A DNA stretch of 56,166 bases, from contig CAYNNX010000004.1 of NCBI GenBank assembly GCA_964398515.1, forward strand, positions 1 to 56,166, read 5' to 3'. The stretch comes from an uncultured Streptantibioticus sp. (GTDB lineage: Bacteria; Actinomycetota; Actinomycetes; Streptomycetales; Streptomycetaceae). Within the stretch, counting starts at the first letter, position 1; each line of letters begins with the position of its first letter. The notes under the pieces are model-generated. The model was not told the origin of the DNA and ran no database searches. It was given only the letters and a program-made list of their open reading frames with translations. The position numbers were made by a program, and so were the translations under genes. Shown piece after piece: positions 3,034 to 27,525 of the stretch.

Positions 3034-3097
3034 CGCCCGCACGGCGCCGCCCGGGCCCGTGAGGGGCTCAGCCGGGAGCCGGGGCCGGTCTGAGGGC

Positions 3098-3520: not shown

Positions 3521-3876
3521 GCGGACCGCCTTCGAAGGTCGGGGCTCGGTGGGCACCGGCGCTCGGCTCGGCGCCGCGTTCACCGCGTGATCATATGCCC
3601 GATTTCGCCGCATTTCACGCATGCCGACCGGACGGCTCACACCACACACATCGTCATGTTCCGGTCGAGCTCGGGCGACTGGAGCACACCGCCGCACACG
3701 CACACACGGCACACCAGACCGCCGCGACGCAGGTGGGCACGGGCCGGGGTGGTCAGCAATGCGCCACCGAACGGTCGCCGAGCGTGACCGGAAGCGATCG
3801 TTCGATGTGCGTTCGACGCCCGGGTGCACCAGACTACCGTCCGTTATCCGCAACCAGACACAAGGGAGTGTTCGAA

Positions 3877-4314: not shown

Positions 4315-4354
4315 CGCTTCGCGCTCCGACGCCTCGCGCTCCGACGCGCAGCCC

Positions 4355-4388
4355 GCGGCCGGGCCCCGTCCACCGGGTGCCCGGCCGC
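4355..4388 (+). terminator. GC-rich hairpin downstream of the SSI gene (candidate intrinsic terminator, no U-tract)
   Basis: GCGGCCGGGC (4355-4364) pairs perfectly with GCCCGGCCGC (4379-4388), starting 41 nt after the stop. It is preceded by a perfect 14-nt direct repeat TCGCGCTCCGACGC at 4319-4332 and 4334-4347. Confidence 0.4.
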
Positions 4389-4487
4389 GCGGCCGTGGGG
4401 CCGTTCAGTAGGGTTCTGCTCCGGCCTGAGGCTCCGTGCAGCTCCCGCCGGCCCCCTTCCGTTCCGCCGATCGACGAGGTGTACGAC

Positions 4488-5723: not shown

Positions 5724-6299
5724 CCGCGCTCGCGCCCGAGCCCCCGGCGGCCTTGGCACCGACGCTGCACGCCTGTGCGCAGGCGCGTCGGGCCGGGGGC
5801 GCCGCCCGCGGATGTGACGCCGGGGTGGTCGTGCTGCCGACGCTGCGGCCGAACGGGCGCCACCGCCGACGTGACGCCGGAAGCCGGCACACGGGCGTCG
5901 GCGGCAGGCGGCACGCCCCTCGTTGCGGCACAAGGGGCCGCACCGGCCCCCGGATCCGGACCGCCCATGGGCCGCACGCGGGACCGCGAGCAGGGCCGCC
6001 GGGGCCCGGGACCCGCCCAGCCGCGTGAGGACGGCGGCCGCAGCCTCGGCGCCGGCCACCAGATCCCGCCCGGGGGGATTCCGCTCCAGCCCCCGGCGCC
6101 CTTCGCACCGACGCGGCAGCCTGAGCCCGCGGCCGCGCCCTCCCGGCGCACAACAGCCGCACACACCCCCAGGACCCGCATCCCGCACCGCGACCCGAGG
6201 GCCCCCCGGAGGCGACCCAGCGCCGGGCCCGACGCCCCTTCGCATCGGCGCCGCACCGCGCGAACCCGGCACCCCGTACCGGCCGTCCGGGCTCGCCCG

Positions 6300-7427
6300 T
6301 CAGCCGTGGGCCGGGCCGCGTACGGTCGAGCGGCCGACCACCGTGCCTGCGCGGTCCGTGCAGAGGACGTCCACCGCGATCGGCGCGCCGCGCAGGACGC
6401 TCAGGGCGGTCTCACGGGCCGCCTCGGCGACCAGGTCGCCCAGGGGGACGCCTTGGGCGGCGCACAGATGTACCGTCTCCAGGCCGGTGTTGGCCGCGGC
6501 CACGGCGGCGGCCAGGGTTTCGTCGGCACCGCCGCGGCGGGCGAGGCCGGCCAGGAAGCCGGTGTCCACCTGGGATCGAGAGGAGTGCAGGTCGAGATGG
6601 CCCGCAGCGAGCTTGGACAGCTTCGCGAAGCCGCCCGCGACGGTGAGCCGGGGCACCGGGTGGCGGCGCAGGTACTTGAGGACCGCGCCGGCGAAGTCGC
6701 CCATGTCCAGCAGGGCGTCCTCGGGCAGGCCGTAGAGCCCGAGGACCGCCTGCTCGGAGGCGGTTCCCGTGCAGCCCGCCACATGGGTGCGGCCGGCCGC
6801 GCGGGCCACGTCGACGCCGCTGCGGATGCTCTCGATCCACGCCGAGCACGAGTACGGCACGACGATGCCCGTGGTGCCGAGGATGGACAGCCCGCCCAGA
6901 ATGCCCAGCCGCGGGTTCCAGGTGTGCCGGGCGAGCTCCTCGCCGTCGTCCACCGCGATCTCCACCTCGGCGTCCACCGGACCCCCGCAGGCCTCGGCGG
7001 CGCGCGCCAGGTGCTCGCGGATCATCCGGCGCGGGACGGGGTTGATCGCGGGCTCGCCCACCGGCAGCGGCAGCCCGGCCCGGGTGACCGTGCCCACGCC
7101 GGGACCGGCCCGGAAGACGACGCCGCTGCCCGCCGGCAGGAGCCGTACGGTCGCGCGGACCAGCGCGCCGTGCGTGACGTCCGGGTCGTCCCCGGCGTCC
7201 TTGACGATCCCGGCCATCGCGTACCGCCCGGGCGCGAGCTCCTCCGCCGCCAGCGCGAACGCGGGTTCCTGCCCCTTGGGCAGGGTGATCGTCACCGGGT
7301 CGGGGAACTCGCCGGTCAGCAGGGCGGTGTACGCGGCGGTGGCCGCCGCCGTCGCGCAGGCGCCGGTCGTCCAGCCGGGCCGCAGGCCGGTGCGCTTCAG
7401 CTGCGCCGCGCGCCCGCCCTCAGCCAC
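6300..7427 (-). CDS. cbiD: cobalt-precorrin-5B (C1)-methyltransferase
   Basis: 375-aa track ORF with GTG start. Motifs GWTTGACATAAATAAY and ILGGLSILGTTGIVVPYSCSAW are characteristic of CbiD. Confidence 0.9.
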   Translation of the reverse strand: MAEGGRAAQLKRTGLRPGWTTGACATAAATAAYTALLTGEFPDPVTITLPKGQEPAFALAAEELAPGRYAMAGIVKDAGDDPDVTHGALVRATVRLLPAGSGVVFRAGPGVGTVTRAGLPLPVGEPAINPVPRRMIREHLARAAEACGGPVDAEVEIAVDDGEELARHTWNPRLGILGGLSILGTTGIVVPYSCSAWIESIRSGVDVARAAGRTHVAGCTGTASEQAVLGLYGLPEDALLDMGDFAGAVLKYLRRHPVPRLTVAGGFAKLSKLAAGHLDLHSSRSQVDTGFLAGLARRGGADETLAAAVAAANTGLETVHLCAAQGVPLGDLVAEAARETALSVLRGAPIAVDVLCTDRAGTVVGRSTVRGPAHG

Positions 7428-7438
7428 GGCAGGCCCTC

Positions 7439-8194
7439 GTGACCGGGCGGCGGCACGTGCTGGTCCTCGGCGGCACGGCGGAGGCGCGGCGGCTGGCCGG
7501 GCTGCTCGCGGACAACCCGGCGCTGCGGGTGACCAGTTCGCTGGCGGGGCGGGTGGCGGCGCCGCGGCTCCCGGCCGGCGAGGTGCGCATCGGCGGGTTC
7601 GGCGGCGCGGACGGTCTGGCGCGCTGGATGCGCGAGCAGCGGGTCGAGGCCGTCATCGACGCCACCCATCCCTTCGCCGAAACGATCAGTCGCAACGCGG
7701 CCGTCGCGGCCGCCGCCGTCCATGTTCCCCTGCTGGGCCTGCGCCGCCCCGGGTGGGTGCCGCAACCCGGGGACCGGTGGCAGCGGGCGGCCTCGGCGGC
7801 CGAGGCCGCGCGGATGCTGCCGGCCCTGGGCCGCCGGGTGTTCCTGACCACGGGACGCCTGGAGCTGGCCGCGTTCGCCGGCCTGGACCGGCTGTGGTTC
7901 CTGGTGCGTTCCGTCGATCCGCCCGCGGCGCCGCTGCCCGCCCGCTGCGAGGTGCTCCTCGCCCGGGGGCCGTTCACCGTCGAGGGCGAGGCCGGGTTGC
8001 TGCGGCGCCACCGGATCGACGTGCTGGTCACCAAGGACAGCGGCGGAGCGGCCACCGCCGCCAAGCTGACGGCGGCGCGCCGGGCCGGCCTGCCGGTCGT
8101 GGTGATCGACCGGCCCGCCGCGCCGGAGGGCGCCGAGACCGCGGCGAGCGTCGAGGAGGCCGCGGCCTGGCTGCGCACCGCGACGAATACCTGA
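7439..8194 (+). CDS. cobK: precorrin-6A / cobalt-precorrin-6A reductase
   Basis: 251-aa track ORF with GTG start. Motifs VLVLGGTAEAR and VIDATHPFAETIS. The start lies only 11 bp from the divergent cbiD start. Confidence 0.85.
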   Translation: MTGRRHVLVLGGTAEARRLAGLLADNPALRVTSSLAGRVAAPRLPAGEVRIGGFGGADGLARWMREQRVEAVIDATHPFAETISRNAAVAAAAVHVPLLGLRRPGWVPQPGDRWQRAASAAEAARMLPALGRRVFLTTGRLELAAFAGLDRLWFLVRSVDPPAAPLPARCEVLLARGPFTVEGEAGLLRRHRIDVLVTKDSGGAATAAKLTAARRAGLPVVVIDRPAAPEGAETAASVEEAAAWLRTATNT

Positions 8195-8201
8195 CGGATC
8201 G

Positions 8202-8828
8202 TCATTCCTCGTCGCTCGCCAGGGCGTTGACGGCGGCGGCGGCCATCGCGCTGCCGCCGCGCCGCCCGCGTACCACCAGGTACTCCAGCCGCGAGGGGTG
8301 GTCGGCGAGGGCCTGCTTGGACTCGGCGGCGCCGACGAAGCCGACCGGGACGCCGATGACGGCCGCCGGGCGGGGGGCGCCGGCCTCGATCAGCTCCAGC
8401 AGGCGGAACAGGGCGGTCGGCGCGTTGCCCACGGCGACCACGGCCCCCTCCAGCCGGTCGCGCCACAGCTCCACAGCGGCGGCGCTGCGCGTGGTGCCCA
8501 GGCGGGCGGCGAGTGCGGGCACGGCCGGGTCGCCCAGAGTGCAGATCACCTCGTTGCCCGCGGGCAGCCGCCTGCGGGTGATGCCGCTGGCGACCATCGC
8601 GACGTCGCAGAGCACCGGCGCCCCGGCGCGCAGCGCGGTCCGGGCGGCGGCCGCCACGGACGGGCTGTAGAGCAGGTCGTCGACGAGGTCGGTCATGCCG
8701 CAGGCGTGGATCATCCGCACCGCGACCCGGCCGACGTCGGCCGGCAGCCGGGCGAGATCGGCCTCGGCCCGGATGGTGGCAAAGGACTGCCGGTAGATCT
8801 CGGCACCGTCCTTCTCGTACTCGAACAT
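8202..8828 (-). CDS. cobH: precorrin-8X methylmutase
   Basis: Start moved to ATG 8828 ([16 protein letters not shown]...) inside track ORF 8202..9035. Motifs [19 protein letters not shown] and [13 protein letters not shown]. Confidence 0.9.
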
Positions 8829-9037
8829 CCCGGGAGCATAGCGGGGCCGGAACACCCCGGGCACCGAGGTGTCCGAGGAAACCGCAGGTCGCAGGGGGCG
8901 TAACCGCGCGGGGCCGGAGACGTTACCGCAGCCGATAACCGTTGCCAGTGCAGTCTTTGGATCTTTTGCCGATTCGCGGTTCACTTCAGTGGGATCCGGC
9001 GGCACAGGCCGCACCGATGGCGAGGGGACGGACACGG

Positions 9038-10093
9038 ATGAGTGGCCACACGCAGCACAGCCACGACCAGACCCGCGACCACGGCGGGCACCGCCACCAC
9101 GACGCCCACGGCCACGGTCACGGCGGCGGGCACTCGCACGGCGTGGCGGCGGACGCCGACCGGCGCTGGCTGACCATCACCCTGTCGCTGATCATCGCCT
9201 TCATGGCGGTGGAGGTCGCCGTCGGCTTCCTGGCCCACTCCCTGGCGCTGATCTCGGACGCGGCGCACATGCTCACCGACGCCGCCTCGATCGTGCTGGC
9301 GCTCGTGGCGATGCGGCTGGCCGCGCGCCCTGCCCGGGGCGGCTTCACGTACGGCCTGAAGCGCGCGGAGATCCTCTCGGCCCAGGCCAACGGGATCACG
9401 CTGCTGCTGCTGTCGCTGTGGCTCGGCTACGAGGCGGCCCGCAGGCTCGTCGCGCCGCCCGTCGTCACGGGCTCGCTGGTGCTGGGCACCGCGCTGGTGG
9501 GGATCGTGGTGAATCTGGCCGCCGCCTGGTGCATCTCGCGGGCCAACCGCACCTCGCTCAACGTCGAGGGCGCCTTCCAGCACATCCTGACCGATCTGTA
9601 CGGCTTCATCGCCACCGCGGCCGCCGGGCTCACCGTGCTGCTCACCGGGTTCGCCCGGGCGGACGCGATCGCCTCGCTGGTCGTGGTCGCGCTGATGCTC
9701 AAGGCCGGCACCGGGCTGGTGCGCGAGTCCGGGCGGATCTTCCTGGAGGCCGCGCCCGCCGGGATCGACCCCGACGCCCTCGGCGACCGGCTGGCGACCC
9801 AGCCCGGGGTGGTGGAGGTGCACGACCTGCACGTGTGGCAGATCACCTCGGGCCAGCCCGCGCTCTCCGCCCACATCCTGGTGGAGCCGGGCCAGGACTG
9901 CCACGCGGTGCGCCGCGGCATGGAGGACCTGCTGCGCGCCGACTACGCCATCACCCACGCCACCCTCCAGGTCGACCACGCGCCCGAGCGGCTGCTCGCC
10001 CTCGCCCCGCCCGGCGACCGGACGCGGCAGGATCCGGGCCACTGCTCGGACGCCCACGGCCCGGTGCACCACGAGGGCCCGCACGAGCACTGA
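9038..10093 (+). CDS. cation diffusion facilitator (CDF) family Zn/Co/Cd-type efflux transporter with His-rich termini
   Basis: ATG 9038 with GAGGGGA SD about 10 nt upstream. [15 protein letters not shown] and HILTDLYG metal-site motifs and 6 TM helices. The N-terminal segment [32 protein letters not shown] has 13 His in 32 aa, and the C-terminus is also His-rich. Confidence 0.85.
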
Positions 10094-13458: not shown

Positions 13459-15051
13459 CTACGCGGCGGCCTCGGCGGCGGCCCGGTGTGCCACGCCCGA
13501 GCGGACCGCCCAGGCGAAGACGGCCAGGGCGACGGCTGCGACCGCGAGCGAGTCGAACGGCGCCGGGAGGTTCCCCGAGCCCTTGAACGTGCCCGCCCAC
13601 GACAGGGCGGTCAGCGCCAGCAGGTAGACCACCAGCCAGGCGCCGGTGCGCAGTTCGGCGCCGAGTGCGGTGCCCGCGCGGTTGGTGCGCCACATCGCGG
13701 CGTAGACCAGGAGCCCGGCGAGGACGAGCGGCAGCGCGATGCGCAGGTCGTGCCAGCCGGACCAGTACACGAACTCGCTGGAGACCACGAAGCTCAGCGG
13801 CGCGATCCAGCGCAGTCCGGGGACCCAGCCCGCCTCCTGCTCGCCGGGGGCGGCGCGGAAGACGGCGGCGGCGACCGCGGAGGACGCGTAGATCAGCAGG
13901 TACATGTCGCCCATGACGCTGACGATGTTCTGCCAGCCGCCGAACGGCAGCAGGAAGACGGCGATCACCGCGAGGTTGAGAACCAGCGCCCGGTGCGGGA
14001 TGCCGTGACGCGGGTCCACCTGCATGAAGTACCGCGGCAGCGTGCCGTTCTTGGCCAGCGCGTAGGTGTGCCGGGCGTCCAGCGCCACGCCGACGTAGGC
14101 CGATCCGCCGGGCGAGAGGACCGCGTCCGCGTACAGCATGCTGGAGAGCCAGTGCAGGTTGAGCAGGAGTGCCAGCTGGCCGAAGGGGGAGTCGAAGTTC
14201 ACGCCGTTCCAGCCGTGGCCGAGCAGGTGGTCGGGGACGGCGAGCAGGAACGCCAGTTGCAGGCCCAGGTACATCACCAGGGCCAGCCCGATCCCGGCGA
14301 GGACCGAGCCCGGGATGGTGCGCCGGGGGTTGCGCGCCTCGCCGGAGAAGTCGAGCGGGGCCTGGAAGCCGTTGACCGAGTAGACGATGCCGCCGCCGGC
14401 GAGCGCGCTCAGGCACGCCACGTAGCCGTAGGGCGCGAAGCCGCCGTGGTCGGTCAGGTGCCCGGGGTGCCATCCGGAGGCGAGGAGCGCGATCACGGTG
14501 ACCAGGGGCACGAGGATCTTCAGGACCGAGACCGCGTTGTTGAGGCGGGCGAACAGCCGCACCTCGAACCAGTTGAGCGCGGTGAGCACCACGCTGAGCC
14601 CGGCGGCGAGGCCCAGACCGGACAGGGTGAGGTGGTGGCTCTCGGTGATGCCGGGCAGGTAGTGGGCGGCGTACTGCATGATGGCGCTGATCTCCGCGGC
14701 CGTACCGCCCACCGACAGCAGCGTCGACCAGCCGATGAGGGTGCCGACGAGCCGGCCGCTGGCGTAAAGGGGCCAGCGGACCGTGCCGCCTCCCTCGGGG
14801 CGTGACGCGCCGAGCTCCACCATCACCAGGGCGACGAGAGCGCACAGCACGCCCGCTCCCACCCACGACAGCAGGGAGGCGGGCCCCGCGGTCTGCGCCG
14901 CGTACATGGCGGCGAACAGCCAGCCGGAGCCGACGATGTTGGAGAAGCCGATCGCCGTCAGACCCCAGAAACCGAGCTCCCGCCGCAGCCGCCGCTCCTG
15001 GGTGAGCACCAGGGGGGCTCCGGCCTCTTCGGGCATCTGACGTTCTGTCAC
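13459..15051 (-). CDS. APC (amino acid/polyamine/organocation) family permease, long 14-TM type
   Basis: 530-aa track ORF. GTG start with GAGGAG SD. Motifs GSGWLFAAMY and FSGEARNPRRTIP; polytopic throughout. Paralogue of the gene at 27526..29178. Confidence 0.85.
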   Translation of the reverse strand: MTERQMPEEAGAPLVLTQERRLRRELGFWGLTAIGFSNIVGSGWLFAAMYAAQTAGPASLLSWVGAGVLCALVALVMVELGASRPEGGGTVRWPLYASGRLVGTLIGWSTLLSVGGTAAEISAIMQYAAHYLPGITESHHLTLSGLGLAAGLSVVLTALNWFEVRLFARLNNAVSVLKILVPLVTVIALLASGWHPGHLTDHGGFAPYGYVACLSALAGGGIVYSVNGFQAPLDFSGEARNPRRTIPGSVLAGIGLALVMYLGLQLAFLLAVPDHLLGHGWNGVNFDSPFGQLALLLNLHWLSSMLYADAVLSPGGSAYVGVALDARHTYALAKNGTLPRYFMQVDPRHGIPHRALVLNLAVIAVFLLPFGGWQNIVSVMGDMYLLIYASSAVAAAVFRAAPGEQEAGWVPGLRWIAPLSFVVSSEFVYWSGWHDLRIALPLVLAGLLVYAAMWRTNRAGTALGAELRTGAWLVVYLLALTALSWAGTFKGSGNLPAPFDSLAVAAVALAVFAWAVRSGVAHRAAAEAAA

Positions 15052-15269
15052 GAACCGGTCTCCTCGCTAGCGCGCGTGCGTGGGACCAGCATTGTGCCTT
15101 GCGGGCGCGATCAGGGGGAGATTCGGGAGCCACAGTTCAAGGCGCGGTAACAATCCACGCCTTGAGCTGCGACTACCCCCGATACCCGGCGGCTACGGTC
15201 CCGCACGGAAACAGGACCGGCCGGAGCCGCCGTTGCTCTGAATCCTCCGGCACCCGCCGACGCATTGTC

Positions 15270-15279
15270 AAGTATACTT
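15270..15279. promoter_or_regulatory. AT-rich perfect 10-bp palindrome AAGTATACTT (candidate operator, overlaps a TATACT -10-like hexamer)
   Basis: This is the only strongly AT-rich patch (cattgtcaagtatactttcac) in the 361-bp divergent spacer between the APC permease (start 15051) and the HTH gene (start 15413). It lies 134 nt upstream of the HTH ATG. Confidence 0.25.
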
Positions 15280-15412
15280 TCACCTGCTACACCTACGGTG
15301 GCCCTTGCGCTCTTGCCGCGCCGCGGGGGCGCTGCCACAGTGAGTGCCATGATCAGGGGGGCTTGCCCGACGCCCGCCCGTCACCGCCCCGCCGGAGGAG
15401 ACCGACCGCCGC

Positions 15413-16213
15413 ATGTCCGTGGGCAGCAACGCCGAAGAACACGCGCTGCGCGTGGCCCGGCGGCTGCGCGTGCTCTTCTCCGAGCTCCACCCGGCCGGAC
15501 GCGGCCCCTGGACCCGGGCCGAGGTCGCCGACTCCTGCCGCCTGCCCGTATCGGCCGTCGACGACCTGTGCGCGGGCCGGCCGCCCGTCGCGGACGCCCA
15601 CCTGCTGGCGGTCGCCCGGCACTTCCGGGTCGACCCGGTCTGTCTGACGGCGGACGACGGCGATCCGCGGATCAGCGCCTGGCAGCGCACGGCCCGCCGG
15701 CTCAACCTGCTGTTCAGCGACATCTACCCGGCCGGACGCGGCCCCTGGACGCACGAGGAGGTCGCCGAGGCGGGCGGCGTGCCCGTCGAGGACGTCCGCC
15801 GGATGTGCGTGGGCGCCCCGCTGGCGGACGCCGGATTCGCCGCCCGGCTCGACCAGTTGTGCCTGCGCGTCTCCCCGGCCACCGGAAAGCCCTACTCCAA
15901 CCGGGAGGTGGGCGCCGCGGTCGGCAAGTCGGGCCAGTACATCGGCAACCTGCGCGGCGGTGTCAACGAACCCGGCCTGCCCGTGGCCATCGCGCTCGCC
16001 CGCTTCTTCGGCATCTCCGTCGAGTACTTCGTCCAGGGCCCGGTCACGCTGGTGGCCCGGCACTTCCGGGTGCCCGAGGTCTATCTGACGGAGGAGGACG
16101 ACACCCCTGCCGTGCGGGAGATCGAGGACTCCCTGCGCACGCTGATCGCCCTGCGCGACGAACGGGTGCAGCGGGTCGTGGGCCGGGTGCTCGACCGGCG
16201 CTGGCCCAACTAG
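15413..16213 (+). CDS. multi-HTH (XRE-type) DNA-binding protein with internally repeated units
   Basis: 266-aa track ORF; GGAGGAG SD 12 nt upstream. One canonical XRE unit (KPYSNREVGAAVGKSGQYIGNLRGGVNEPGLPVAIALARFFGISVEYF) plus two degenerate units starting ARRL(R/N)(V/L)LFS....PAGRGPWT..EVA. Confidence 0.8.
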   Translation: MSVGSNAEEHALRVARRLRVLFSELHPAGRGPWTRAEVADSCRLPVSAVDDLCAGRPPVADAHLLAVARHFRVDPVCLTADDGDPRISAWQRTARRLNLLFSDIYPAGRGPWTHEEVAEAGGVPVEDVRRMCVGAPLADAGFAARLDQLCLRVSPATGKPYSNREVGAAVGKSGQYIGNLRGGVNEPGLPVAIALARFFGISVEYFVQGPVTLVARHFRVPEVYLTEEDDTPAVREIEDSLRTLIALRDERVQRVVGRVLDRRWPN

Positions 16214-16352
16214 CCCGCGGCGACGGCCCGGAGGCGCCCGCGGCGACGGTGGCCGCGAGGTGCATGGATGCCCGTTGTCGGTGGTCCGCACTACGATCTC
16301 TGTCGCGCTGCCACGCACGACCGGACTGTGCGACATGCTTGAGGAGGGACTC

Positions 16353-16877
16353 ATGGGCATCGCCGGTGACCGACGTCGAGCCCGTAAGTACATCCACGAC
16401 AGGCTCTCCCTCCCCCAGGGCCGCCCCTTGGCACTCGAGGACCTGGTCGACGCGGTCGGTGCCGCCCGGGGCAAGCCCATCGAGGTCGTCCACCGCAGAC
16501 TGGCGCCGCGCGTCACCGGGTTCTGCGCGGTGCGGCCGGACCGGGACGTGGTCGTGGTCGACGCGACGGCCCCCAGGTTCCTGCAGATCGTCATCGCCTG
16601 CCACGAGCTCTTCCACCTGCTGCACGACGACGAACCGCCCGACGACTGCCCGATCGACGAGGAGACCGCCCGCGCCCTGATGCCCGGGCTCGCGCCCGAC
16701 ATGGTGAAGATGGTCCTGCTCGGGCGCTGCCTGGAGGGCGAGGAGTCGCCGGACGCGGTCGAACGCCTCGCGGAGATCGGCGGCACGGAGCTGATGCAGA
16801 TGCTCGACCTCACCCCGGGGGCCGCGGCGACGGGCGCGTACACCTCGGCTTTGGAGATGCGGAGGCCCGGTGTCTGA
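16353..16877 (+). CDS. HExxH zinc-metallopeptidase-like protein (ImmA/IrrE, M78-like size and motif)
   Basis: Start placed at ATG 16353 because of the strong SD GAGGAGGGA 3-4 nt upstream (ATG 16335 is the alternative). HELFH at codons 84-88 (16602-16616). About 174 aa. Its stop overlaps the next gene's start. Confidence 0.7.
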   Translation: MGIAGDRRRARKYIHDRLSLPQGRPLALEDLVDAVGAARGKPIEVVHRRLAPRVTGFCAVRPDRDVVVVDATAPRFLQIVIACHELFHLLHDDEPPDDCPIDEETARALMPGLAPDMVKMVLLGRCLEGEESPDAVERLAEIGGTELMQMLDLTPGAAATGAYTSALEMRRPGV

Positions 16878-18084
16878 GAGCGCGGCAAACGTCATCTACC
16901 TGGTGGTGGTCGCCATCGGCGCCTGCAGCGCGGCCGTCAAGGTCTCCGCGCTGCGCCGCGGCTTCTCGGTCTCGGTGCTGGTGATGATCTCCTGCCACGT
17001 CGTGGGAGCGCTGGCCTTCCTGACCGCCTCGCCGGTGGTCTACCGCCTCATCGACCATCTGTCCGGGCGGTTGGGGCTCGCGACGCTGGTGGTCTACTCG
17101 TTCATCGTCCTGTTCGGCGCCCACGCCCACCTGCTGGCCGTCCTCTGGGCCGCCGAGGTCAGGGGCGGCCCCGCCCCGCGGTGGCGGATCACCTGCCATG
17201 CCGTCAGTTACGCGGTGATCCTCGCGGCCATGGCGGCGGTCTTCTGGCGGGCCCGTCTGACGGGCCCCGAGCGTCCGCTGAAGTTCAACGTCACGCACGC
17301 GGACGACCCGGACGTGATCATCTTCCTCGTCGTCTTCATGGCGGGCCTGTCGTACTCGATGCTCTCCACCGCCTGGGAGTGCCGCCAGGGCGCCCGCACC
17401 GAGCACGAGCGGCTGCGCCGGGGGCTGCGCAACATCAGCGTGGCCTCGCTGTTCATCTTCGGGTACGTCGTCTTCGCCGGGCCCTCGCTCGCGGCGGCGG
17501 CCGCCGGGGACCACGCCTTGGACTTCCTGACCGATCTGGGCGCCGCCTCGGGCACGGTGGGGGCGTTCGTCCTCAACTGGGGCTTCTCCGGACCCGTGGT
17601 GCAGGTGTGGTGGCGGGACCGGCGGGACTACCTGCGGCTGCGCGTGCTGTGGGAGACCGCGGTCGGCGGCGCCGACCGCACCGTGGCGCTCCCTCCCCCC
17701 AGCCGCATGGTCGAGCGGTGGTCGCTGCTGAGCGCCGGGGCGTGGCTGCTGCTGCGGCGGCTGGCCGACATCTGCGACGCGGAGCGGGCGTTGTCACCGT
17801 GGATGGACCCGGAGCTGGCCCGCCGGGCCGAGGAGGCGGGCAGGCGGCGCGGGTTGGCGCCGGCGGACGTCAGGGCGGTCACCTGCGCGGTGATCCTGCT
17901 GGACGCGGTGGACCGCAGGAGGCGCGGCGAGGCGCCGGGCTTCGGTCCCACGCCCCGCCCGGACGACGTGGCGCCCGAGAGCGAGCGGGCCCATCTGGTG
18001 CGGGTGGCCCGCGCCCTCGGCGATCCCCTGGTGCGCTCGCTGCTGGAGCCCCGGCGTCCCGGCGCCGCCCTGGGCAGCTCCTAG
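16870..18084 (+). CDS. polytopic membrane protein (about 7 TM) with an Arg-rich cytoplasmic C-terminal domain; function unknown
   Basis: 404-aa track ORF. GTG 16870 overlaps the upstream stop by 8 nt (GTGTCTGA), with GGAGG 4 nt upstream. From memory it resembles actinobacterial proteins annotated 'MAB_1171c family putative transporter'; this is unverified. Confidence 0.75.
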   Translation: MSESAANVIYLVVVAIGACSAAVKVSALRRGFSVSVLVMISCHVVGALAFLTASPVVYRLIDHLSGRLGLATLVVYSFIVLFGAHAHLLAVLWAAEVRGGPAPRWRITCHAVSYAVILAAMAAVFWRARLTGPERPLKFNVTHADDPDVIIFLVVFMAGLSYSMLSTAWECRQGARTEHERLRRGLRNISVASLFIFGYVVFAGPSLAAAAAGDHALDFLTDLGAASGTVGAFVLNWGFSGPVVQVWWRDRRDYLRLRVLWETAVGGADRTVALPPPSRMVERWSLLSAGAWLLLRRLADICDAERALSPWMDPELARRAEEAGRRRGLAPADVRAVTCAVILLDAVDRRRRGEAPGFGPTPRPDDVAPESERAHLVRVARALGDPLVRSLLEPRRPGAALGSS

Positions 18085-19412
18085 CGCCCGGGCCCGTAGA
18101 GCGTTCGCGCCACCAGGGCCAGCGTGCCCGGGCGGGCCAGCGTGCGGGGGTGGGCCCGCATGTGGACCACGTCCAGGAAGCGGCGGTGGGCCTCCGTGTC
18201 CTCGACGGTCGCCCGGGCCAGCAGGGCGGTGTACCACCGGGCGGCGCGGTAGCCGGCCGGGTAGGGGCCGGGCACGTGCGGCAGGGCCAGGTCGCCCAGG
18301 GTGGAGAAAGCCCAGGCGGCGCCGACCACCACGCGTACCCGCCGGAAGTAGTCCCACGCCGGTTCGGCGGGCGAGGCGCCCGAGCGCAGCCACGCCGACA
18401 GGCAGGAGGCGTGCAGGGCGGCCGAGGACATCCCCTGGCCGTAGACCGGGTTGAAGGCGGCGACCGCGTCGCCCGCCGCGACCAGTCCGCCGGGGAAGCG
18501 CCGCAGGGCGGTGAAGTCCCGCCGGCGGCTGTCCGGTACCCGGTGCACGGCCACGTCGCCGAGCATCTCGCACTCCGCGGCGATCTCCCGGAACGGCGGT
18601 GCGATGGACCGGCGAAGCCTGGCGACGAACTCCTCGGGATCCTTCGTCGGGCGCCGGTCCGCGTAGGCGGCGATCATCGCCATCCAGCGGCCGCCCTCGA
18701 CCTCGGCGACCGCGTTGCCGTCCAGCTCCGGCCACCCGGGCGCCTGCGGGCCGAACGCCGAGGCCGCCAGCCCGACCCCGGGGAGCTCCGCGCCGCGGCG
18801 GAAGAAGGCCGTCGCGTACCCCAGGTCGATGGGCATGCGCTGCAATTGCGGGCCCTGCCAGCCGGCCCGCTCCAGCCACGCCCCCAGCCGGCTCGACCGG
18901 CCGGTCGCGTCCACCACCAGGTCGGCCGCAAGGCGCTCCCGGTCCGTGGTGCCGAGCGGCTGGTAGCGCACCCCGTCCACCCGCCGGCCCAGGAACGTCA
19001 GGCCGTCCGCGCGGCCGCGTGACACCGTCACGTTCTCCAGCGCCAGCACCCGGCGGCGGACCCGGGACTCCAGGAACGGGCGGGTGGCGCTGATGAACTC
19101 GCCGTCGGGGACGCGCGCCTTGAGCATCCCGTCGATGTAGCTGTGGAAGCCCGTGCCGCCGCTGTGGACCGCACCGTCGGCCACGAACTCGGCGCCGATC
19201 CCGGGGAACCAGCGCTCCAGCTGGATGCGGCCCATGTCCAGCAGCACGTGCAACTGCTGCGCCTGCGGCGCGCCGGGACGGGGGTCGAGGCCGTCGTGCC
19301 CATCGTGCGGGTCGTCCGGCTCCACGATCACCACGTTCTCCGCGTGGTCGCTCAGCACCCGAGCCGCCATCAGCCCGGCGATGCTTCCCCCCAGTACGAC
19401 CGCTGTACGCAC
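18081..19412 (-). CDS. FAD-dependent oxidoreductase / monooxygenase-like protein
   Basis: 443-aa track ORF with GTG start. N-terminal Rossmann motif VVLGGSIAGLMAA, plus DATGRSS and GDAVAAFNPVYGQG motifs typical of flavin monooxygenase/reductase folds. Confidence 0.8.
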   Translation of the reverse strand: MRTAVVLGGSIAGLMAARVLSDHAENVVIVEPDDPHDGHDGLDPRPGAPQAQQLHVLLDMGRIQLERWFPGIGAEFVADGAVHSGGTGFHSYIDGMLKARVPDGEFISATRPFLESRVRRRVLALENVTVSRGRADGLTFLGRRVDGVRYQPLGTTDRERLAADLVVDATGRSSRLGAWLERAGWQGPQLQRMPIDLGYATAFFRRGAELPGVGLAASAFGPQAPGWPELDGNAVAEVEGGRWMAMIAAYADRRPTKDPEEFVARLRRSIAPPFREIAAECEMLGDVAVHRVPDSRRRDFTALRRFPGGLVAAGDAVAAFNPVYGQGMSSAALHASCLSAWLRSGASPAEPAWDYFRRVRVVVGAAWAFSTLGDLALPHVPGPYPAGYRAARWYTALLARATVEDTEAHRRFLDVVHMRAHPRTLARPGTLALVARTLYGPGR

Positions 19413-19464
19413 AGCCGACCCCCCAACTGTCGATCGTGACCGGCCCCCACCCTACGATTCCCGC

Positions 19465-20373
19465 ATGAGCGCATGGAACCAGGCACTCGACGCCGCGGGC
19501 GTCCACGGCACCGGATCGCGCCACGACTACACGGCGCAGCGCGCACTGGTGGCACGGTTCCGGCGCACCTCCTACCTCGCCGCCCGGCTGCTGCTGCCGC
19601 GGGCGGTGCTACCCCACGTGATCGCGATGACGGCGTTCATGCACCACGGCGACAACCTGCTGGACAGCGGCCCGCAGCAGGGGCGGGCGGCCGCCTGGGC
19701 GCGGTGGGAGAAGCAGGTGCGCGAGGGGCTCGCCACCGGGCGGAGCGAGGATCCGCTGATCCGCGCCGTGCTGCACACGGCGGCCGCCGTTCCGAGGCTG
19801 CCCGGTTACATCGAGGCGTATCTGGCCACCGCCACGGCCGAGTTGGAGTTCACCGGCTTCGCCACCGAAGCAGATTACGCCCGCTATGTCGACGCCTATT
19901 CGCTGCCCGCGTTCATGCTGGTCGCGGGCGTCATCGCGCCCGAGGACGATCCGGCCGAGTACCGGGCGGCCTGCCGTACGTTCATCGACGCGAGCCAGCG
20001 GCTGGACTTCGTCAACGACCTCTCCGAGGACCTGCGGGAGGGGCGGTTCGCCCTTCCGGCCCGGACGCTGGAGCGGTTCTCGGTCACCCGGGAGGATCTG
20101 GCGCAGGCCCGGGACCTTCCGCAGGTGCGTGCGCTGCTGAGCCATCTGCTCGGCGAGGCCCGCGCGGTGCTGGAGTCGGCGCGGGCCCTGGTCGACGTGA
20201 CACCGCCGGCCCACCGTCCGCTGGTGCGGGCCCTGATCGACGTCGAGCGGCTCACCGCGGACGCCGCCGAGGCCAAGGGCGCGGGGCTGCTGCGCTCGTC
20301 GGCGAGCCCACCGGCCTTCGGCGCGCTGCGGGTGCTGGCGCGCGAGTACCTGCGGGCCCGCCGGTCGCGCTGA
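19465..20373 (+). CDS. squalene/phytoene synthase family (head-to-head prenyl diphosphate synthase-like) protein
   Basis: Start at ATG 19465 inside track ORF 19153..20373 (302 aa). Both Asp-rich motifs are present: FMHHGDNLLD and DFVNDLSEDLREGRFALP. Confidence 0.8.
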   Translation: MSAWNQALDAAGVHGTGSRHDYTAQRALVARFRRTSYLAARLLLPRAVLPHVIAMTAFMHHGDNLLDSGPQQGRAAAWARWEKQVREGLATGRSEDPLIRAVLHTAAAVPRLPGYIEAYLATATAELEFTGFATEADYARYVDAYSLPAFMLVAGVIAPEDDPAEYRAACRTFIDASQRLDFVNDLSEDLREGRFALPARTLERFSVTREDLAQARDLPQVRALLSHLLGEARAVLESARALVDVTPPAHRPLVRALIDVERLTADAAEAKGAGLLRSSASPPAFGALRVLAREYLRARRSR

Positions 20374-20374
20374 G

Positions 20375-22339
20375 TCAGCGATGGCCGCCCCGGGGTGCCT
20401 CCCGGGGCAGGTCGAGCGCCGGGTTTCGGTCGAAGAAGCCGGTCGGCTTGAGCGTGAAGCCGCACACGTCCACGGGCATCACCGGCCACTCCTCCAGCCG
20501 CGGCAGGTGCGTCGGGCCGAAGGTGTGCCAGACGGTGAGCTCGGTGTCGGTGAGGGGTTCGCCGCCGCTCGTCCAGGCGGGCAGCCCCGCGCCGCCGGGG
20601 TGCTGGTTGGGGTGGTCCCCGGCCGGGTAGCGGCGGTCGGTTCGGTGCCGGGTGACCCACACGTGCTTCGTGCCGTAGGCGATGCGCCGGGCCGCCGCCG
20701 AGCCGGGCTGTGCGAGCAGGACCGGCCCGGGCTGCGTGAGGAGGGTGTAGGCGACAGGCTCCCCCATGCGGTTGCGCACCGCCGGGTTGGTGATGCGCCA
20801 GCGCCGCCCGACGGCGGGGTCGGCCAGCCGCCCGCCGTCGGCGCTGTCGGCGATCGGCGTCGCCCGGACGGTGAAGGCGTTGCCGGCCGGGTTGCCGGGA
20901 CCGGGCGGCACGGGCACCACGTCGACCTCCTCAACCGTGTTCGCCAGGCCGTCCACGGCGGCGTCCAGCCGTACGCAGAACAGGTGCTGGTGGTAGGGCG
21001 CGAGCAGCCCGGGGGCCACCTGCGTGCCGTACGGCGAGCCGGCGGCGGGGTCGACGGCGGAGGTCTGCACGATGCCGGTGGACTTGGCCTCGAAGGAGAT
21101 CGTGCCGTCCTGGTGGAAGTACCAGTAGAAGCCGTAGTCGTAGTTGCCGACGGTGGCGATGAAGGAGACGACCAGGCGGCGGGCGCGGCGGGATTCGACG
21201 GCCATGTCGTTGAAGATGTCGGTGTGCTTCCACAGCAGGCCGGCGTCCTCCTCGTGGATGCACACGGCGTTCGGCAGCGTCTGCGGGTTGCCGTGGTCGT
21301 CGGTGAGGACGGCGTCGAGGTAGCGGATCTCGCCGAGGCAGTCGCAGCCCAGCCTGAGCGAGTTGGCGTTGCGGCCGAGCAGGTACTCCCCCGCGTCCAG
21401 GAAGGCCACCCAGTTGCGGGTCGGCTCGGCCTCCGCGTAGGCCACCGCCATCTCGGCGAGCGAGGCCCGGTGCAGCACGGAGCGGTCGCGGTCGCCGTCG
21501 CGGTAGGTGATGCGGTGCAGTACCAGTCCCTCGCGGGCGTTGAAGTCGATGCGCAAGCGCCAGTTCTGCCAGCTGAGCCGGTGGCCGTCGAGCCGGAACG
21601 AGGGGCCTTCGGGCTGGCTGATCTCCAGCGGGCGCACGTCGGTGCGGGCAGCCGGGGCGAACTGCGGCTCGTAGCGCCCGCATTCGGCGGGTACGGGTAC
21701 GGCTCCGGTGTCGACCACGCGCAGCACCCGGCGCTCGATCACGTCGACGTCGGCGACGAGGCCGCCCACCGGGTGGGCCCACGGGCTGTCGGTGGCGTCG
21801 CAGCGCAGCCAGGTCAGCGAGCGCATCATGCGGCGGCCGGGGACGTCGTCGACGCGCAGGGCTCCCGCGCCCAGGGGTGCGCAGACGGCGAGTCCGGTGT
21901 CGGTGATGCCTCGGTCGGCCATGGCCTTGCGCCAGCGCGGGTCGGCCTTGACCACCCGGTCGACGATCTCGTACTCCTCGAAGGTCACCGGGGGCTGCCC
22001 GTCGCAGGCCGGGTCGAGTTCCCGGTAGGACAGCAGCAGTCCGGCGGTGACGTCGACGAGGGCTTCGGCGGTGGCGCCCGTGGCGGAGTCGAGCAGGGTG
22101 ACCCGCACGCGGCGCACCACGGGGTCGCCGTCCCGGTGGGCGGCGGCGGTGTGCCGGTCGGGCTCGTCGAGCAGCACGAGCGGCAGGCGCGTGGCAGCGG
22201 CGATCCTGCCCGCCGCGTCGAGGATCCGGCGGGCGGCGGTCAACTCCTCGGCGGACAGCGGGTCGAGGGGGTGCGGCGCGGCGCTCCCCGCGCGGTGGGC
22301 GCAGCAGGTGGTGGTCATGGTGGACTCTTCCTGGGCCAT
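20375..22339 (-). CDS. copper-containing primary amine oxidase (topaquinone enzyme)
   Basis: 654-aa track ORF. TPQ precursor motif NYDY (ATVGNYDYGFYWYF) and Cu-ligand HQH (APYHQHLF). The SD GGAGG lies inside the 3' end of the upstream permease gene. Confidence 0.9.
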   Translation of the reverse strand: MAQEESTMTTTCCAHRAGSAAPHPLDPLSAEELTAARRILDAAGRIAAATRLPLVLLDEPDRHTAAAHRDGDPVVRRVRVTLLDSATGATAEALVDVTAGLLLSYRELDPACDGQPPVTFEEYEIVDRVVKADPRWRKAMADRGITDTGLAVCAPLGAGALRVDDVPGRRMMRSLTWLRCDATDSPWAHPVGGLVADVDVIERRVLRVVDTGAVPVPAECGRYEPQFAPAARTDVRPLEISQPEGPSFRLDGHRLSWQNWRLRIDFNAREGLVLHRITYRDGDRDRSVLHRASLAEMAVAYAEAEPTRNWVAFLDAGEYLLGRNANSLRLGCDCLGEIRYLDAVLTDDHGNPQTLPNAVCIHEEDAGLLWKHTDIFNDMAVESRRARRLVVSFIATVGNYDYGFYWYFHQDGTISFEAKSTGIVQTSAVDPAAGSPYGTQVAPGLLAPYHQHLFCVRLDAAVDGLANTVEEVDVVPVPPGPGNPAGNAFTVRATPIADSADGGRLADPAVGRRWRITNPAVRNRMGEPVAYTLLTQPGPVLLAQPGSAAARRIAYGTKHVWVTRHRTDRRYPAGDHPNQHPGGAGLPAWTSGGEPLTDTELTVWHTFGPTHLPRLEEWPVMPVDVCGFTLKPTGFFDRNPALDLPREAPRGGHR

Positions 22340-22345
22340 CGGGGG

Positions 22346-23872
22346 TTACGCCTCCGTCCCGGTTCCGGCGGCCTGGTCCAGCCGGAACGCCTCGTTGCCG
22401 AGGCCGATGCGCGCGTGCGTCGTCGGGCGCAGCGACTTGAGCAGCAGGCCGTGGCCGAGGCCCACGAGCACGGCGGCGCCGACGACCCCCGGCAGGATCC
22501 AGCTCAGCGCGGATCCCGGGTCAGCGCCCAGCAGGACGCCGAAGTCCTTCACGGTGTAGACGACGATCCCCGTCAGCACGATCCCGGCGACCGCCGAGGC
22601 GGCGATGCGCCACACCTGGGCGCGGGCCGCTCCGCGCCGGGCGAAGAAGGCGATGACCGAGAAGGAGGCGGCCGCCATCAGCACGATGACGCCCAGCGCC
22701 CCCACGTTGCCCATCCAGGTGAACAGGTGCAGCACGGGTGCGGTGGGATCCCCGGCCGGGCCGTGGTCGGTGACCGCGAAGGCGGCGACGACCATCACGG
22801 ACACCGCGGTCTGCAGCAGCGAGCCGTACGCCGGTGCGCCGCTGGCCCGGTTGGTGCGGCCGAAGGCGGCCGGCAACAGCCCCTCGCGGCCCATGGCGAA
22901 GGCGTAGCGGGCGACGACGTTGTGGAAGCTGAGCATCGCGGCGAACATGCCGGTGACGAAGAAGACCTCCAACACGTCCGTGAAGCCGGTGCCGAGGCGT
23001 TCCCCGCTGAGCGAGAACAGCAGCCCCGAGCCCTGTTTCCGGGCGACTTCGACGATGTGTGCGGGGCCGGTGGCGACGGACAGCGCCCAGGAGCTCAGCG
23101 AGAAGAACAGGGCGACGAAGCCGACGGTGAGGAACATCGCCCGGGCGACGACGACCTGCGGGCGGCTGGCCTCCTCGGCGTAGACCGGTGCCTGCTCGAA
23201 GCCGACGAACGCGGCGATGGCGAAGCACAGCGCGGTGCCCAGTCCCGCGCCGGACAAGGTCGCCGGGTCGAACGCGTGCAGCGAGAGCCCCTCGCGGCCC
23301 GGGGAGGCGATCCATCCCGCGTCGAAGACGGCGACCAGGGCGACTTCGACGAGGAGCAGTACGCCGAGCACCCGTGCGTTGAGGTCGATCTTGAGCCAGC
23401 CGAGGACGCCGGTGACCGCCACGCCCGCGAAGGCGGGGATCCACCAGGCGAGGTCGGCACCGGTGTGCTCGCCGACCAGGCTCGCGATCTCGAAGCCGAA
23501 CATGCCGTAGATCCCCACCTGCATGGCGCTGTAGGCGACGAGCGCGACCACCGAGGCCCCGGCGCCGGCGGTGCCGCCCAGGCCGCGGGCGATGTACGCG
23601 TAGAAGGCGCCGGCGTTGTGGACGTGGCGGCTCATCTCGGCGTAGCCGACGCTGAACAGGATCAGTACGGCGCCCAGGATCACGAAGAGCAGCGGCTGCC
23701 CGACGATCCCCATGACGCCGTAGGTGGTGGGCATGACGCCGGCGACCACCATCAGCGGTGCGCTGGCGGCGAGCACCGACAGCAGCAGGCCCGGCAGCCC
23801 GATCCGGTCGGCGCGCAGCCGCCGCTCCTGTCCCAGGTAGGTGCTGATCTCGCTGGTACTGCCCGTCAGCAT
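22346..23872 (-). CDS. APC family amine/amino-acid permease
   Basis: 508-aa track ORF with 12 TM-type hydrophobicity. Its TAA stop lies 6 nt before the amine oxidase ATG. Confidence 0.85.
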   Translation of the reverse strand: MLTGSTSEISTYLGQERRLRADRIGLPGLLLSVLAASAPLMVVAGVMPTTYGVMGIVGQPLLFVILGAVLILFSVGYAEMSRHVHNAGAFYAYIARGLGGTAGAGASVVALVAYSAMQVGIYGMFGFEIASLVGEHTGADLAWWIPAFAGVAVTGVLGWLKIDLNARVLGVLLLVEVALVAVFDAGWIASPGREGLSLHAFDPATLSGAGLGTALCFAIAAFVGFEQAPVYAEEASRPQVVVARAMFLTVGFVALFFSLSSWALSVATGPAHIVEVARKQGSGLLFSLSGERLGTGFTDVLEVFFVTGMFAAMLSFHNVVARYAFAMGREGLLPAAFGRTNRASGAPAYGSLLQTAVSVMVVAAFAVTDHGPAGDPTAPVLHLFTWMGNVGALGVIVLMAAASFSVIAFFARRGAARAQVWRIAASAVAGIVLTGIVVYTVKDFGVLLGADPGSALSWILPGVVGAAVLVGLGHGLLLKSLRPTTHARIGLGNEAFRLDQAAGTGTEA

Positions 23873-27450: not shown

Positions 27451-27525
27451 CGCACCAGCCCGCCGCGTTTCGTCCTCCCAGCATCGTCCCGCCGTGCGGC
27501 CAGGCACAACCGCCGCCGGTCCGGC

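Follow-up and report, generated by a model that had tools for sequence, protein, structure and literature searches.

Genes for an EspR-like Regulator, an ImmA/IrrE-type Peptidase and a Seven-Helix Membrane Protein Form the Core of a Conserved Streptomycetaceae Cassette, Possibly a Split Proteolytic Switch

Pairs of an XRE-family repressor and an M78-type metallopeptidase serve as cytoplasmic switches of prophages, integrative and conjugative elements (ICEs), cyclic oligonucleotide-based antiphage signalling systems (CBASS) and the radiation response of Deinococcus. Contig CAYNNX010000004.1 of an uncultured Streptantibioticus sp. (assembly GCA_964398515.1; positions 1 to 56,166, a stretch of 56,166 nucleotides that is referred to as the window) carries what looks like such a pair, genes A and B, and gene B runs directly into gene C, which codes for a polytopic membrane protein. 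The locus therefore raises the question of what a membrane protein does in this company: does it work together with the peptidase, is it an effector that the pair keeps under control, or does it belong to a pathway encoded next door? An earlier reading of the DNA made without database searches (the sequence-only reading) had proposed a three-gene switch from signal to proteolysis. The interpretation that we tentatively favour, and regard as quite possible by analogy, is that A, B and C make up a split BlaR1/BlaI-like switch of sensor, protease and repressor that would control adjacent oxygenase genes. The features on which the argument turns are as follows.

Gene A: 15413..16213, + strand; 266 amino acids (aa), XRE family, three EspR-like helix-turn-helix (HTH) units and an EspR-like C-terminal segment
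Gene B: 16353..16877, + strand; 174-aa minimal ImmA/IrrE-type (M78) zinc metallopeptidase, as judged by motifs and predicted fold
B/C junction: 16861..16877, + strand; Shine–Dalgarno (SD) sequence GGAGG (16861-16865) and the GTGTCTGA start/stop overlap; translational coupling
Gene C: 16870..18084, + strand; 404-aa membrane protein of the MAB_1171c/DUF6545 family, GTG start

The three proteins and the B/C junction

Genes A, B and C can be taken as real because the G+C content at third codon positions (GC3) in the annotated frames is 0.89-0.94, in a window of ~74% GC. They are co-directional, and the HELFH motif at codons 84-88 of B and the strong SD of B lie where the sequence-only reading had placed them. 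The families that it had predicted were recovered for all three proteins: A and C score above the cut-offs of the expected families (HTH_3/HTH_31 and MAB_1171c/DUF6545, respectively), and B is M78-like, with a score below the Pfam gathering threshold.

Gene A starts with ATG, preceded by the SD sequence GGAGGAG at 15394-15400. Its Cro/C1-type HTH is recognized above curated Pfam thresholds by both HTH_3 (39.3 bits, cut-off 23, E 6.5e-10) and HTH_31 (38.5 bits, cut-off 27, E 1.4e-9), each in two stretches of the protein. The whole chain consists of three repeats of one unit, 'RL..LF....PAGRGPW...EV', and the repeats align with one another. When the PDB sequences were searched, the closest solved relatives were chains of Mycobacterium tuberculosis EspR (whole-sequence E 1.5e-5), with three short stretches of A matching EspR residues 7-33, 39-78 and 63-106. 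The two proteins have the signature 'RLN.LF..(I/V)(Y/H)P..RGP(W/Y/H)(T/S)..EV' in common, and the C-terminal helix of EspR can be aligned too. Orthologues of A are 65-72% identical to it; the PADLOC capH model matches A with an E-value of 0.047 only. On sequence similarity, then, A is an XRE-family and specifically an EspR-like regulator.

Gene B has its own SD sequence, GAGGAGGG, at 16341-16348, 5-12 nt ahead of the ATG. The HELFH motif (encoded at 16602-16616) supplies H84, E85 and H88 on a predicted helix spanning residues 75-91, while E137 and E141 fall on another predicted helix, 133-149; E137 is the proposed third zinc ligand of a gluzincin pattern. Along with R125, these are the only invariant residues in an alignment of 30 homologues with 24-78% identity. 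To estimate the breadth of the family, 1.84 billion cluster representatives, to which no genomic context is attached, were searched exhaustively with a profile. The family is small; at thresholds of E<=1e-3 and E<=1e-10 it comprises 162 and 22 clusters, respectively, and HExxH is found at the equivalent position in 147 of the 149 representatives listed. Word-indexed homologue searches, started with B, with C or with a diverse alignment of B, returned almost exclusively close relatives.

The AlphaFold2 (AF2) model of B (mean predicted local distance difference test score, pLDDT, 81; predicted template modelling score, pTM, 0.74) finds IrrE/PprI as its top three Foldseek matches in the PDB, with probability 1.00, E-values of 1.8-4.2e-3 and TM-scores of 0.40-0.42. 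In the viral library the top fold matches are phage IrrE N-terminal-like proteins (E 7.6e-4), and the zinc-protease domain of BlaR1 is among the weak matches (E 0.13, probability 0.23). Thus, both a metallopeptidase fold and the HExxH motif are conserved far beyond orthologues, a point on which the sequence-only reading had staked its proposal. Among the 30 members of the B family, 17 match Pfam M78 at E<=0.01 (best 1.8e-6) and 10 match the PADLOC model of CapP; the B relative at locus L014 scores 23.2 bits with the Pfam M78 model. The window protein itself does not match capP, its sole PADLOC match being PDC-M69B (5.7e-4), and B alone finds no match among PDB sequences. Since the Pfam score of B is below threshold, we place it on a divergent branch of M78, to which motifs and fold assign it. 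By these sequence features B is a divergent, minimal M78-type metallopeptidase whose catalytic set is intact.

The GTG start codon of C overlaps the TGA of B (16875-16877) by 8 nt, in the sequence GTGTCTGA at 16870-16877, just as the sequence-only reading had described, and the arrangement is kept in distant relatives: the GTGTCTGA junction, mostly with GGAGG or a variant upstream, is present in 10 of the 12 relatives listed, including pairs that are only 30-40% identical. The B family also has a conserved C-terminal 'RR.GV', which may in part reflect a constraint on nucleotides, since the codons CGG AGG ... GGT GTC TGA hold the SD sequence and the start codon of C.

The protein encoded by gene C matches the NCBIfam model NF042915 ('MAB_1171c family putative transporter') over residues 12-383 with 108 bits (cut-off 100), and its tail matches Pfam DUF6545 (PF20182) over residues 247-383 with 68 bits (cut-off 24.4, E 1.5e-18); by these scores it is a bona fide MAB_1171c/DUF6545 member. 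Seven transmembrane helices are predicted within residues 3-238, both by hydropathy and in an AF2 model (pLDDT 80.5), and the helical tail of 159 aa contains 28 arginines and no lysine, in agreement with the roughly seven helices and arginine-rich tail of about 160 aa expected from the sequence-only reading. According to the positive-inside rule, the N-terminus is predicted to lie outside and the tail in the cytoplasm. No Pfam family was found for the transmembrane part, and the family profile of C produced only chance matches among PDB sequences. Seven-helix receptors make up most of the top 50 Foldseek matches of the C model (E 0.02-0.3; TM-score by target 0.45-0.57). These 50 do not include a transporter, although a protein that has no known transporter fold may still transport a substrate. 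In an alignment of 18 sequences, the residues conserved throughout the family are mostly aromatic (W93, F125, F139, Y199, Y58 and Y114), with, in addition, P136 in the 'PL.FN' extracytoplasmic loop, H87 in the third transmembrane helix and an acidic residue at position 218. As modelled, C looks like a receptor rather than a transporter or an enzyme. The generic annotation of related genes mentioned in the sequence-only reading was confirmed as 'MAB_1171c family putative transporter', a label to which structure lends no support. A phage association of C was considered and rejected: there was no tblastn match in 50,697 phage records and no PHROG match, nor was there a PADLOC match.

Conservation of the cassette, its neighbours and its upstream sites

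A scan of a genome collection with an alignment of C gave 13 loci, the peptide patterns derived from the alignment being narrow; to these, plasmid loci and some metagenome contigs were added, and six-frame open reading frames (ORFs) were scored against A, B and C profiles as well as against the sequences of the two genes that follow C in the window, D and E. Some of the sequences behind the A and C profiles came from these same loci. The census comprises 27 intact C genes, the window included, with 23-74% identity to the window protein. A B-family gene lies directly upstream on the same strand in 27/27. An EspR-like multi-HTH gene is found within the fetched flanks of 26; in the remaining locus, on a Streptomyces chartreusis plasmid, it is 11 kb away, beyond an insertion with an IS5 transposase. 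The following arrangements were observed (L numbers are our designations of loci).

Type I: A>B>C> <D E>; the window and L001-L006 (E undetected in L004); L016 without E
Type II: B>C>D>E> <A; L007-L013, L018, L019, L021-L023 (D missing in L008 and L011)
Type III: A>B>C>P450 (cytochrome P450); L027-L029
Type IV: A>B>C>amidase; the second copy in L022
Mixed type: P450s or PhlD nearby; L015, L017, L020

As can be seen, A, B and C are constant while their neighbours (D and E, P450s or an amidase) vary, which makes A-B-C the core unit. The variable neighbour is nearly always an oxygenase. The sequence-only reading had asked whether synteny would extend beyond close relatives, and the trio stays together down to 23-38% identity of C. 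Its three-gene module stands as the core, but the conserved unit is larger; D and E flank it here and in most relatives. In RefSeq the B homologues appear as 'ImmA/IrrE family metallo-endopeptidase', 'toxin' or 'hypothetical' beside a 'MAB_1171c family putative transporter'; the combination is recognizable in this annotation and is undiscussed in the literature that we found. A polytopic protein encoded downstream of B in L014 did not match the C profile and was not counted as C.

Downstream of C, the window contains the following features.

Gene D: 18081..19412, − strand; flavin monooxygenase of 443 aa resembling the olefin epoxidases MonCI and Lsd18; convergent with C
TACGAT hexamer: 19453..19458, + strand; 6 nt before the ATG of E, read from the sequence
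Gene E: 19465..20373, + strand; 302-aa protein of the squalene/phytoene-synthase family

The polyether olefin epoxidases MonCI and LasC/Lsd18 are retrieved by D from the PDB sequences with an E-value of 1e-38. E matches Pfam SQS_PSY (4e-29), and its closest solved relatives are the squalene-synthase-like aromatic prenyltransferases LvqB4 (3.6e-17) and CqsB4 (7e-13), followed by HpnC; its assignment as HpnC or HpnD was rejected, since it scores 66-73 bits with NCBIfam models whose cut-offs are 250-279. Going by the families of the two enzymes, a pairing of D with E would normally imply prenylation and then epoxidation of an acceptor. D adjoins 19 of the 27 C genes and E adjoins 18, and a P450 gene directly follows C in four more loci; in many loci B>C>D>E are on the same strand with short gaps. 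When the 10 closest plasmid homologues of D (at least 47% identity) were inspected, nine were on records that also bear B-C, the exception being a D-E pair without A, B or C in L024. The TAG stop codons of C and D overlap in the palindrome CTAG (18081-18084), which leaves no space for a terminator between the genes; the overlap is not kept in orthologues, where gaps are ~20 nt. The position of TACGAT 6 nt before the ATG suggests a leaderless transcript of E; the hexamer is also present in L002 and is not conserved across all orthologues.

Family members were found on 13 Streptomyces plasmids, mostly large linear ones. The view that the module lies outside mobile elements therefore applies to the window, where the scanned ORFs gave no integrase, transposase or phage match, and not to the family. 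On large Streptomyces plasmids the cassette adjoins type III polyketide synthase (PKS) and P450 genes. Plasmid pFRL6 (L022) has two back-to-back cassettes (1285-3640 and 4406-9513), a compact A>B>C>amidase operon, whose C is 23% identical to the window protein, and a B>C>D>E <A cluster. In L015/L025 (NZ_CP108821.1, ~250-263 kb) some 8 kb separate B-C from D-E-A; the intervening DNA contains genes for two major facilitator superfamily transporters, a methyltransferase, RacP and DUF6192 proteins and an IS5 transposase, and, as far as the gene order tells, gives the impression of an insertion that interrupted an ancestral cluster of five genes. Just upstream lie another ImmA/IrrE gene, which is truncated, and a gene for a PhlD type III PKS. 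NUDIX hydrolase genes are located near the cassette in three loci (L007, 2799-5117; L016, 2632-3087; L017, 8848-11068; the ranges also cover ATPase genes) and OLD/AAA ATPase genes in two (an OLD-like TOPRIM plus AAA protein in L007, an 'AAA family ATPase' in L017). Divergently upstream of B, L018, L019, L021 and L023 have an IclR regulator and a zinc-binding dehydrogenase.

Upstream regions of the orthologous loci were aligned, and the following elements were noted.

Upstream block: 15128..15182, + strand; 17-bp hairpin (15128-15174) and then GACTACCCCCG; its membership in the module is tentative
Candidate operator: 15265..15282, no strand assigned; 18-mer TTGTCAAGTATACTTTCA enclosing the palindrome AAGTATACTT (15270-15279)
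Putative promoter of gene A: 15310..15341, + strand; conserved CTCTTGCCG, 17 nt and CACAGT (TTGCCG-N17-CACAGT)
A-B spacer element: 16290..16299, + strand; conserved ACTACGATCT with a −10-like TACGAT at 16292-16297

The palindrome AAGTATACTT, to which the sequence-only reading had drawn attention, is the sole match in 56 kb even when one mismatch is allowed, with 0.03 matches expected from shuffled sequences. The enclosing 18-mer occurs once upstream of A in the window and in all six orthologous loci (7/7); four of the six copies are identical, and two have a one-base G-to-C change that breaks the palindrome while the site is kept. Read on the minus strand, the 18-mer contains TTGACA, a −35-like hexamer. 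Columns 15310-15341 are conserved in the alignment and could be the promoter of A. They include CTTGCCG, which agrees at 6/7 positions with the EspR site consensus TTTGC[TC][GA], and EspR itself controls its own expression through sites that precede its start (PMC3315491). In the A-B spacers, which have otherwise diverged, ACTACGATCT is kept in 7/7 orthologous loci, so that B-C may have a separate promoter. The block at 15128-15182 is near-invariant in 7/7 orthologous loci even though the flanking gene differs; none of the 17 pairs of its hairpin covaries in these loci, and because compensatory changes are lacking an RNA structure has no support beyond sequence conservation. Scans of 14900-16400 with Rfam and consensus motifs revealed no Rfam family, canonical σ70 promoter or intrinsic terminator. 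Comparison of the B-upstream with the A-upstream regions in the divergent B>C>D>E <A loci yielded no conserved 9-mer common to both.

The proposed switch and its alternatives

Those M78 proteases that are known to be characterized, namely ImmA, IrrE and CapP, inactivate XRE-family repressors (ImmR, DdrO and CapH, respectively) by cleavage (PMC2701414; PMC6868357; PMC12828697). From the genes, families and folds established above, together with catalytic-residue conservation, coupling, synteny and conserved cis-elements, we infer the protease activity of B, A as its substrate, a B-C contact, a sensory role of C, the nature of its cue and the regulon. In the scheme that would unite them, the three genes are the constant part of an actinobacterial cassette with a regulatory function, split BlaR1/BlaI-like or ImmA/ImmR-like in its mode of action. 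A would probably bind the promoters of B-C and of the cargo genes as well. B would be a small cytoplasmic zinc protease, made in a fixed ratio to C by virtue of the conserved SD sequence and the GTGTCTGA overlap, and the cytoplasmic DUF6545 domain of C would hold or gate it at the membrane. Perception of a membrane-soluble or envelope-derived cue by the seven-helix bundle would activate or release B, which would then cleave A; once A is lost, the cassette and its neighbouring cargo would be transcribed differently.

We favour this split switch because the catalytic set of B is intact, its EspR-like partner is constant, the coupled seven-helix protein with its large conserved cytoplasmic domain is constant too, and a natural fusion of B with the DUF6545 tail exists. 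In the fusion (L026, 5001-6050; protein P0035, 349 aa; found in two assemblies) the whole transmembrane region is deleted. Judged from its sequence, it could be a product of decay or a soluble variant that hints at an interaction between B and the tail. Together, the conserved cytoplasmic domain and the fusion suggest that C acts with B and not merely after it.

Several observations weigh against the split switch. Proteolysis, the contacts of B with C or with A and the signal are all presumed. The Pfam Peptidase_M78 model (PF06114) gives B 18.2 bits (E 0.0023), below the gathering cut-off of 22, and the family profile of B finds IrrE among PDB sequences at E 0.33 only. The Foldseek E-values of C (0.02-0.3) are weak, and any seven-helix bundle tends to match G-protein-coupled receptors, which are abundant in the PDB. 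Start/stop overlaps are frequent in high-GC operons and are no proof of a complex. Neither the promoters of B, D and E nor any of the non-orthologous loci contain the 18-mer TTGTCAAGTATACTTTCA. C served as the starting point of the census, all identified hosts (chromosomes and plasmids alike) are Streptomycetaceae, and because many loci are mutual orthologues it may represent perhaps 6-8 independent lineages. Three distant B homologues (~30% identity) were checked; one has a convergent DUF6545 gene, another has none called, and downstream of the remaining one, overlapping it, is a gene for a polytopic membrane protein that the C profile does not recognize. Finally, in the B>C>D>E operons C sits between the protease and two biosynthetic enzymes, a position that would suit an enzymatic or export role too.

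Such a role is the substance of one alternative, namely that the locus is a biosynthetic cassette, comparable to the sets of prenyltransferase, epoxidase and membrane cyclase in the xiamycin, drimentine or pyripyropene pathways. E would attach a prenyl group to an acceptor or condense prenyl diphosphates, D would epoxidize the olefin and the seven-helix part of C would be a membrane terpene cyclase or a product exporter, with A and B as a local switch in which B senses a cytoplasmic cue, as CapP and IrrE do. The resemblance of D to MonCI/Lsd18 epoxidases (E 1e-38), the nearness of E to LvqB4 and CqsB4 and the closely spaced same-strand B>C>D>E order in many loci fit this explanation well, as do the dimensions of the transmembrane part of C (~245 aa, seven helices) and its conserved residues, mostly aromatic plus H87 and acidic 218: in Streptomyces pathways such prenyltransferases are combined with seven-helix cyclases of 227-250 aa (DmtA1, XiaE, Pyr4; PMC6173783). 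However, the 18-sequence alignment contains no conserved acidic residue in the second transmembrane helix of C, where, going by published residues, Pyr4/DmtA1-type cyclases have a catalytic glutamate (E60/E63); C always comes with a cytoplasmic domain of 160 aa, which cyclases do not have, and Pfam gives no match for its transmembrane part. Moreover, A-B-C is kept in loci that have a P450 or an amidase in place of D and E, and L024 has the D-E pair without A, B and C. We consider a purely biosynthetic role of C rather unlikely. A related idea would keep the sensor and make its ligand local: C would be a seven-helix receptor for a lipophilic prenylated or epoxidized molecule made by D and E (by P450s elsewhere), signalling through DUF6545 to B, which would destroy A. 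We rate it as improbable indeed; if true, it would amount to a new hormone-like autoregulator circuit in Streptomyces, with signal synthases, membrane receptor, protease transducer and transcription factor in one five-gene cluster, and an equivalent design might act on mycobacterial EspR-family regulators.

A further possibility, which the sequence-only reading had itself raised, is that A and B are an XRE/M78 derepression pair of the ordinary kind and that they control C as an effector, which could function in immunity, stress protection or membrane remodelling and would be expressed once A has been cleaved. In ImmR/ImmA, CapH/CapP and DdrO/IrrE the protease itself senses the cue and needs no membrane partner, and C lies downstream of B in one transcription unit. 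The phenotype of a transposon mutant in M. abscessus MAB_1171c, the only experiment on the C family that we found and one without a transport assay (cefoxitin minimal inhibitory concentration (MIC) of 4 vs. 16 and clarithromycin MIC of 0.5 vs. 2 ug/mL, with ~50% less biofilm; PMC8707978), could be due to loss of an effector; it also fits the split switch, being compatible with an inducible response to lipophilic drugs, of which it is no demonstration. Yet C is never swapped for another effector, whereas the cargo genes vary, and its conserved cytoplasmic domain and the B-tail fusion suggest that it works with B, so that the effector explanation seems to us fairly improbable. Much less probable still is a three-component toxin–antitoxin or antiphage abortive system with A as antitoxin and repressor, B as COG2856 'toxin' or trigger protease and C as a membrane-damaging effector. 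It would agree with the proposal that Xre-COG2856 pairs are toxin–antitoxin-like, at times three-component, modules (PMC2701414), with the name 'toxin' that PGAP and UniRef give to some B homologues, with the weak PADLOC matches (PDC-M69B at 5.7e-4, capP in 10/30 relatives) and with a patchy distribution that includes plasmid copies, sometimes near genes for OLD-type ATPases, RES-domain proteins or polymorphic toxins. But the scanned neighbours include neither a RelE/PIN-type toxin nor genes of CBASS or any other defence system, C has no phage, PADLOC or PHROG match, the chromosomal locus is stably syntenic across genera beside metabolic enzymes, and a receptor-like seven-helix bundle with a large structured tail is unlike the known small pore-forming effectors.

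Should the split switch be real, it would have consequences outside this locus. EspR is a virulence regulator of M. tuberculosis; since A belongs to the EspR family and C to the MAB_1171c family, a defined mechanism could matter for mycobacterial regulation and intrinsic drug resistance. Because its neighbours are oxygenase and prenyltransferase genes or, on large plasmids, type III PKS and P450 genes, the cassette could also serve as a handle for activating silent small-molecule pathways.

Surroundings of the locus and comparison with known systems

The search for integrase, transposase and phage domains covered part of the window, 20 GC3-supported ORFs at ~0.1-34.6 kb, and returned no Pfam match of this kind; five of the 20 had no Pfam match at all. 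The GC content of the window is flat (0.68-0.81). Among the neighbours scanned with Pfam, neither RelE or PIN domains nor genes of CBASS or another defence operon were identified. Around the module, three paralogous amino-acid permeases of the APC family and a copper amine oxidase are encoded (13459-15051, 20375-23872, 27526-29178), which suggests an amine-uptake and catabolism neighbourhood; the orthologous loci have one APC permease on the opposite side of the cassette. A PAS-GAF-SpoIIE(PP2C)-HATPase_c_2 phosphatase/kinase of the partner-switching type and an MprF-like lysyl-phosphatidylglycerol synthase are also encoded in the window (25024-27507, − strand, and 1246-3033), and nothing in our data ties either to the module. 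Cobalamin-biosynthesis genes (tetrapyrrole methylase, CbiD) at 4182-8466 and a CDF cation-efflux gene at 8942-10093 complete an ordinary chromosomal context.

As in ImmR/ImmA of ICEBs1, DdrO/IrrE of Deinococcus and CapH/CapP of CBASS, an XRE HTH gene is found here near the gene of a small ImmA/IrrE-type HExxH protease, and a conserved site lies upstream of the HTH gene. Unlike in those switches, the protease has a translationally coupled seven-helix/DUF6545 partner in 27/27 cases, A is EspR-like with 2-3 HTH units per chain, and the window offers no ICE, prophage, CBASS or DNA-damage context. That XRE/M78 pairs have no known dedicated membrane partner, as the sequence-only reading had maintained, agrees with the literature, in which we found none; nor did we find any report that pairs DUF6545/MAB_1171c proteins with ImmA/IrrE proteases, the phenotype paper on MAB_1171c being the only one on the family. 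B differs from IrrE in having no extra C-terminal sensor domains and in its marginal similarity to M78 (18.2 vs. 22 bits), and the pair differs from CapH/CapP in that the window B does not match capP and there are no defence genes in the neighbourhood. The Xre-COG2856 modules of Makarova et al. (2009; PMC2701414) are similar in their XRE and zincin core, patchy distribution, plasmid copies and 'toxin' annotations; their third component is RelE or PIN and HTH-protease fusions are often seen, whereas here the third protein has seven helices and sits among oxygenase and prenyltransferase genes.

With EspR (Rv3849), a nucleoid-associated regulator, A shares the signature and the C-terminal helix. 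EspR has 132 aa, with one HTH and a dimerization domain, as opposed to 266 aa and three HTH units in A, and no protease or DUF6545 partner is reported in the EspR literature that we found. The DmtC1/DmtA1, xiamycin XiaE/XiaH and fungal Pyr4 sets resemble the window locus in that a squalene-synthase-like enzyme, a flavin epoxidase and a seven-helix part of ~245 aa are adjacent. Cyclases of the DmtA1 type have seven transmembrane helices in ~227-250 aa, a catalytic glutamate in the second helix and an aspartate near the seventh (E60 and D214 in DmtA1; PMC6173783). Unlike Pyr4, XiaE and DmtA1, C lacks a conserved glutamate in the second helix, has a DUF6545 tail and is always accompanied by the protease and the HTH protein, D and E being dispensable.

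In its proposed logic the cassette would come closest to BlaR1/BlaI and MecR1/MecI, where a polytopic sensor, a cytoplasmic gluzincin and a repressor go together with an adjacent enzyme gene; this is an analogy and not membership. BlaR1 combines the sensor and an M56 protease in one polypeptide with an extracellular penicillin-binding domain, while B and C are separate proteins of unrelated families in which Pfam detects no transpeptidase-like domain, and BlaI is a winged-helix repressor, unlike A. An XRE/M78 switch with an obligatory receptor-like membrane partner would admit membrane or extracellular cues to a class of cytoplasmic switches and would be a two-protein counterpart of BlaR1/BlaI.

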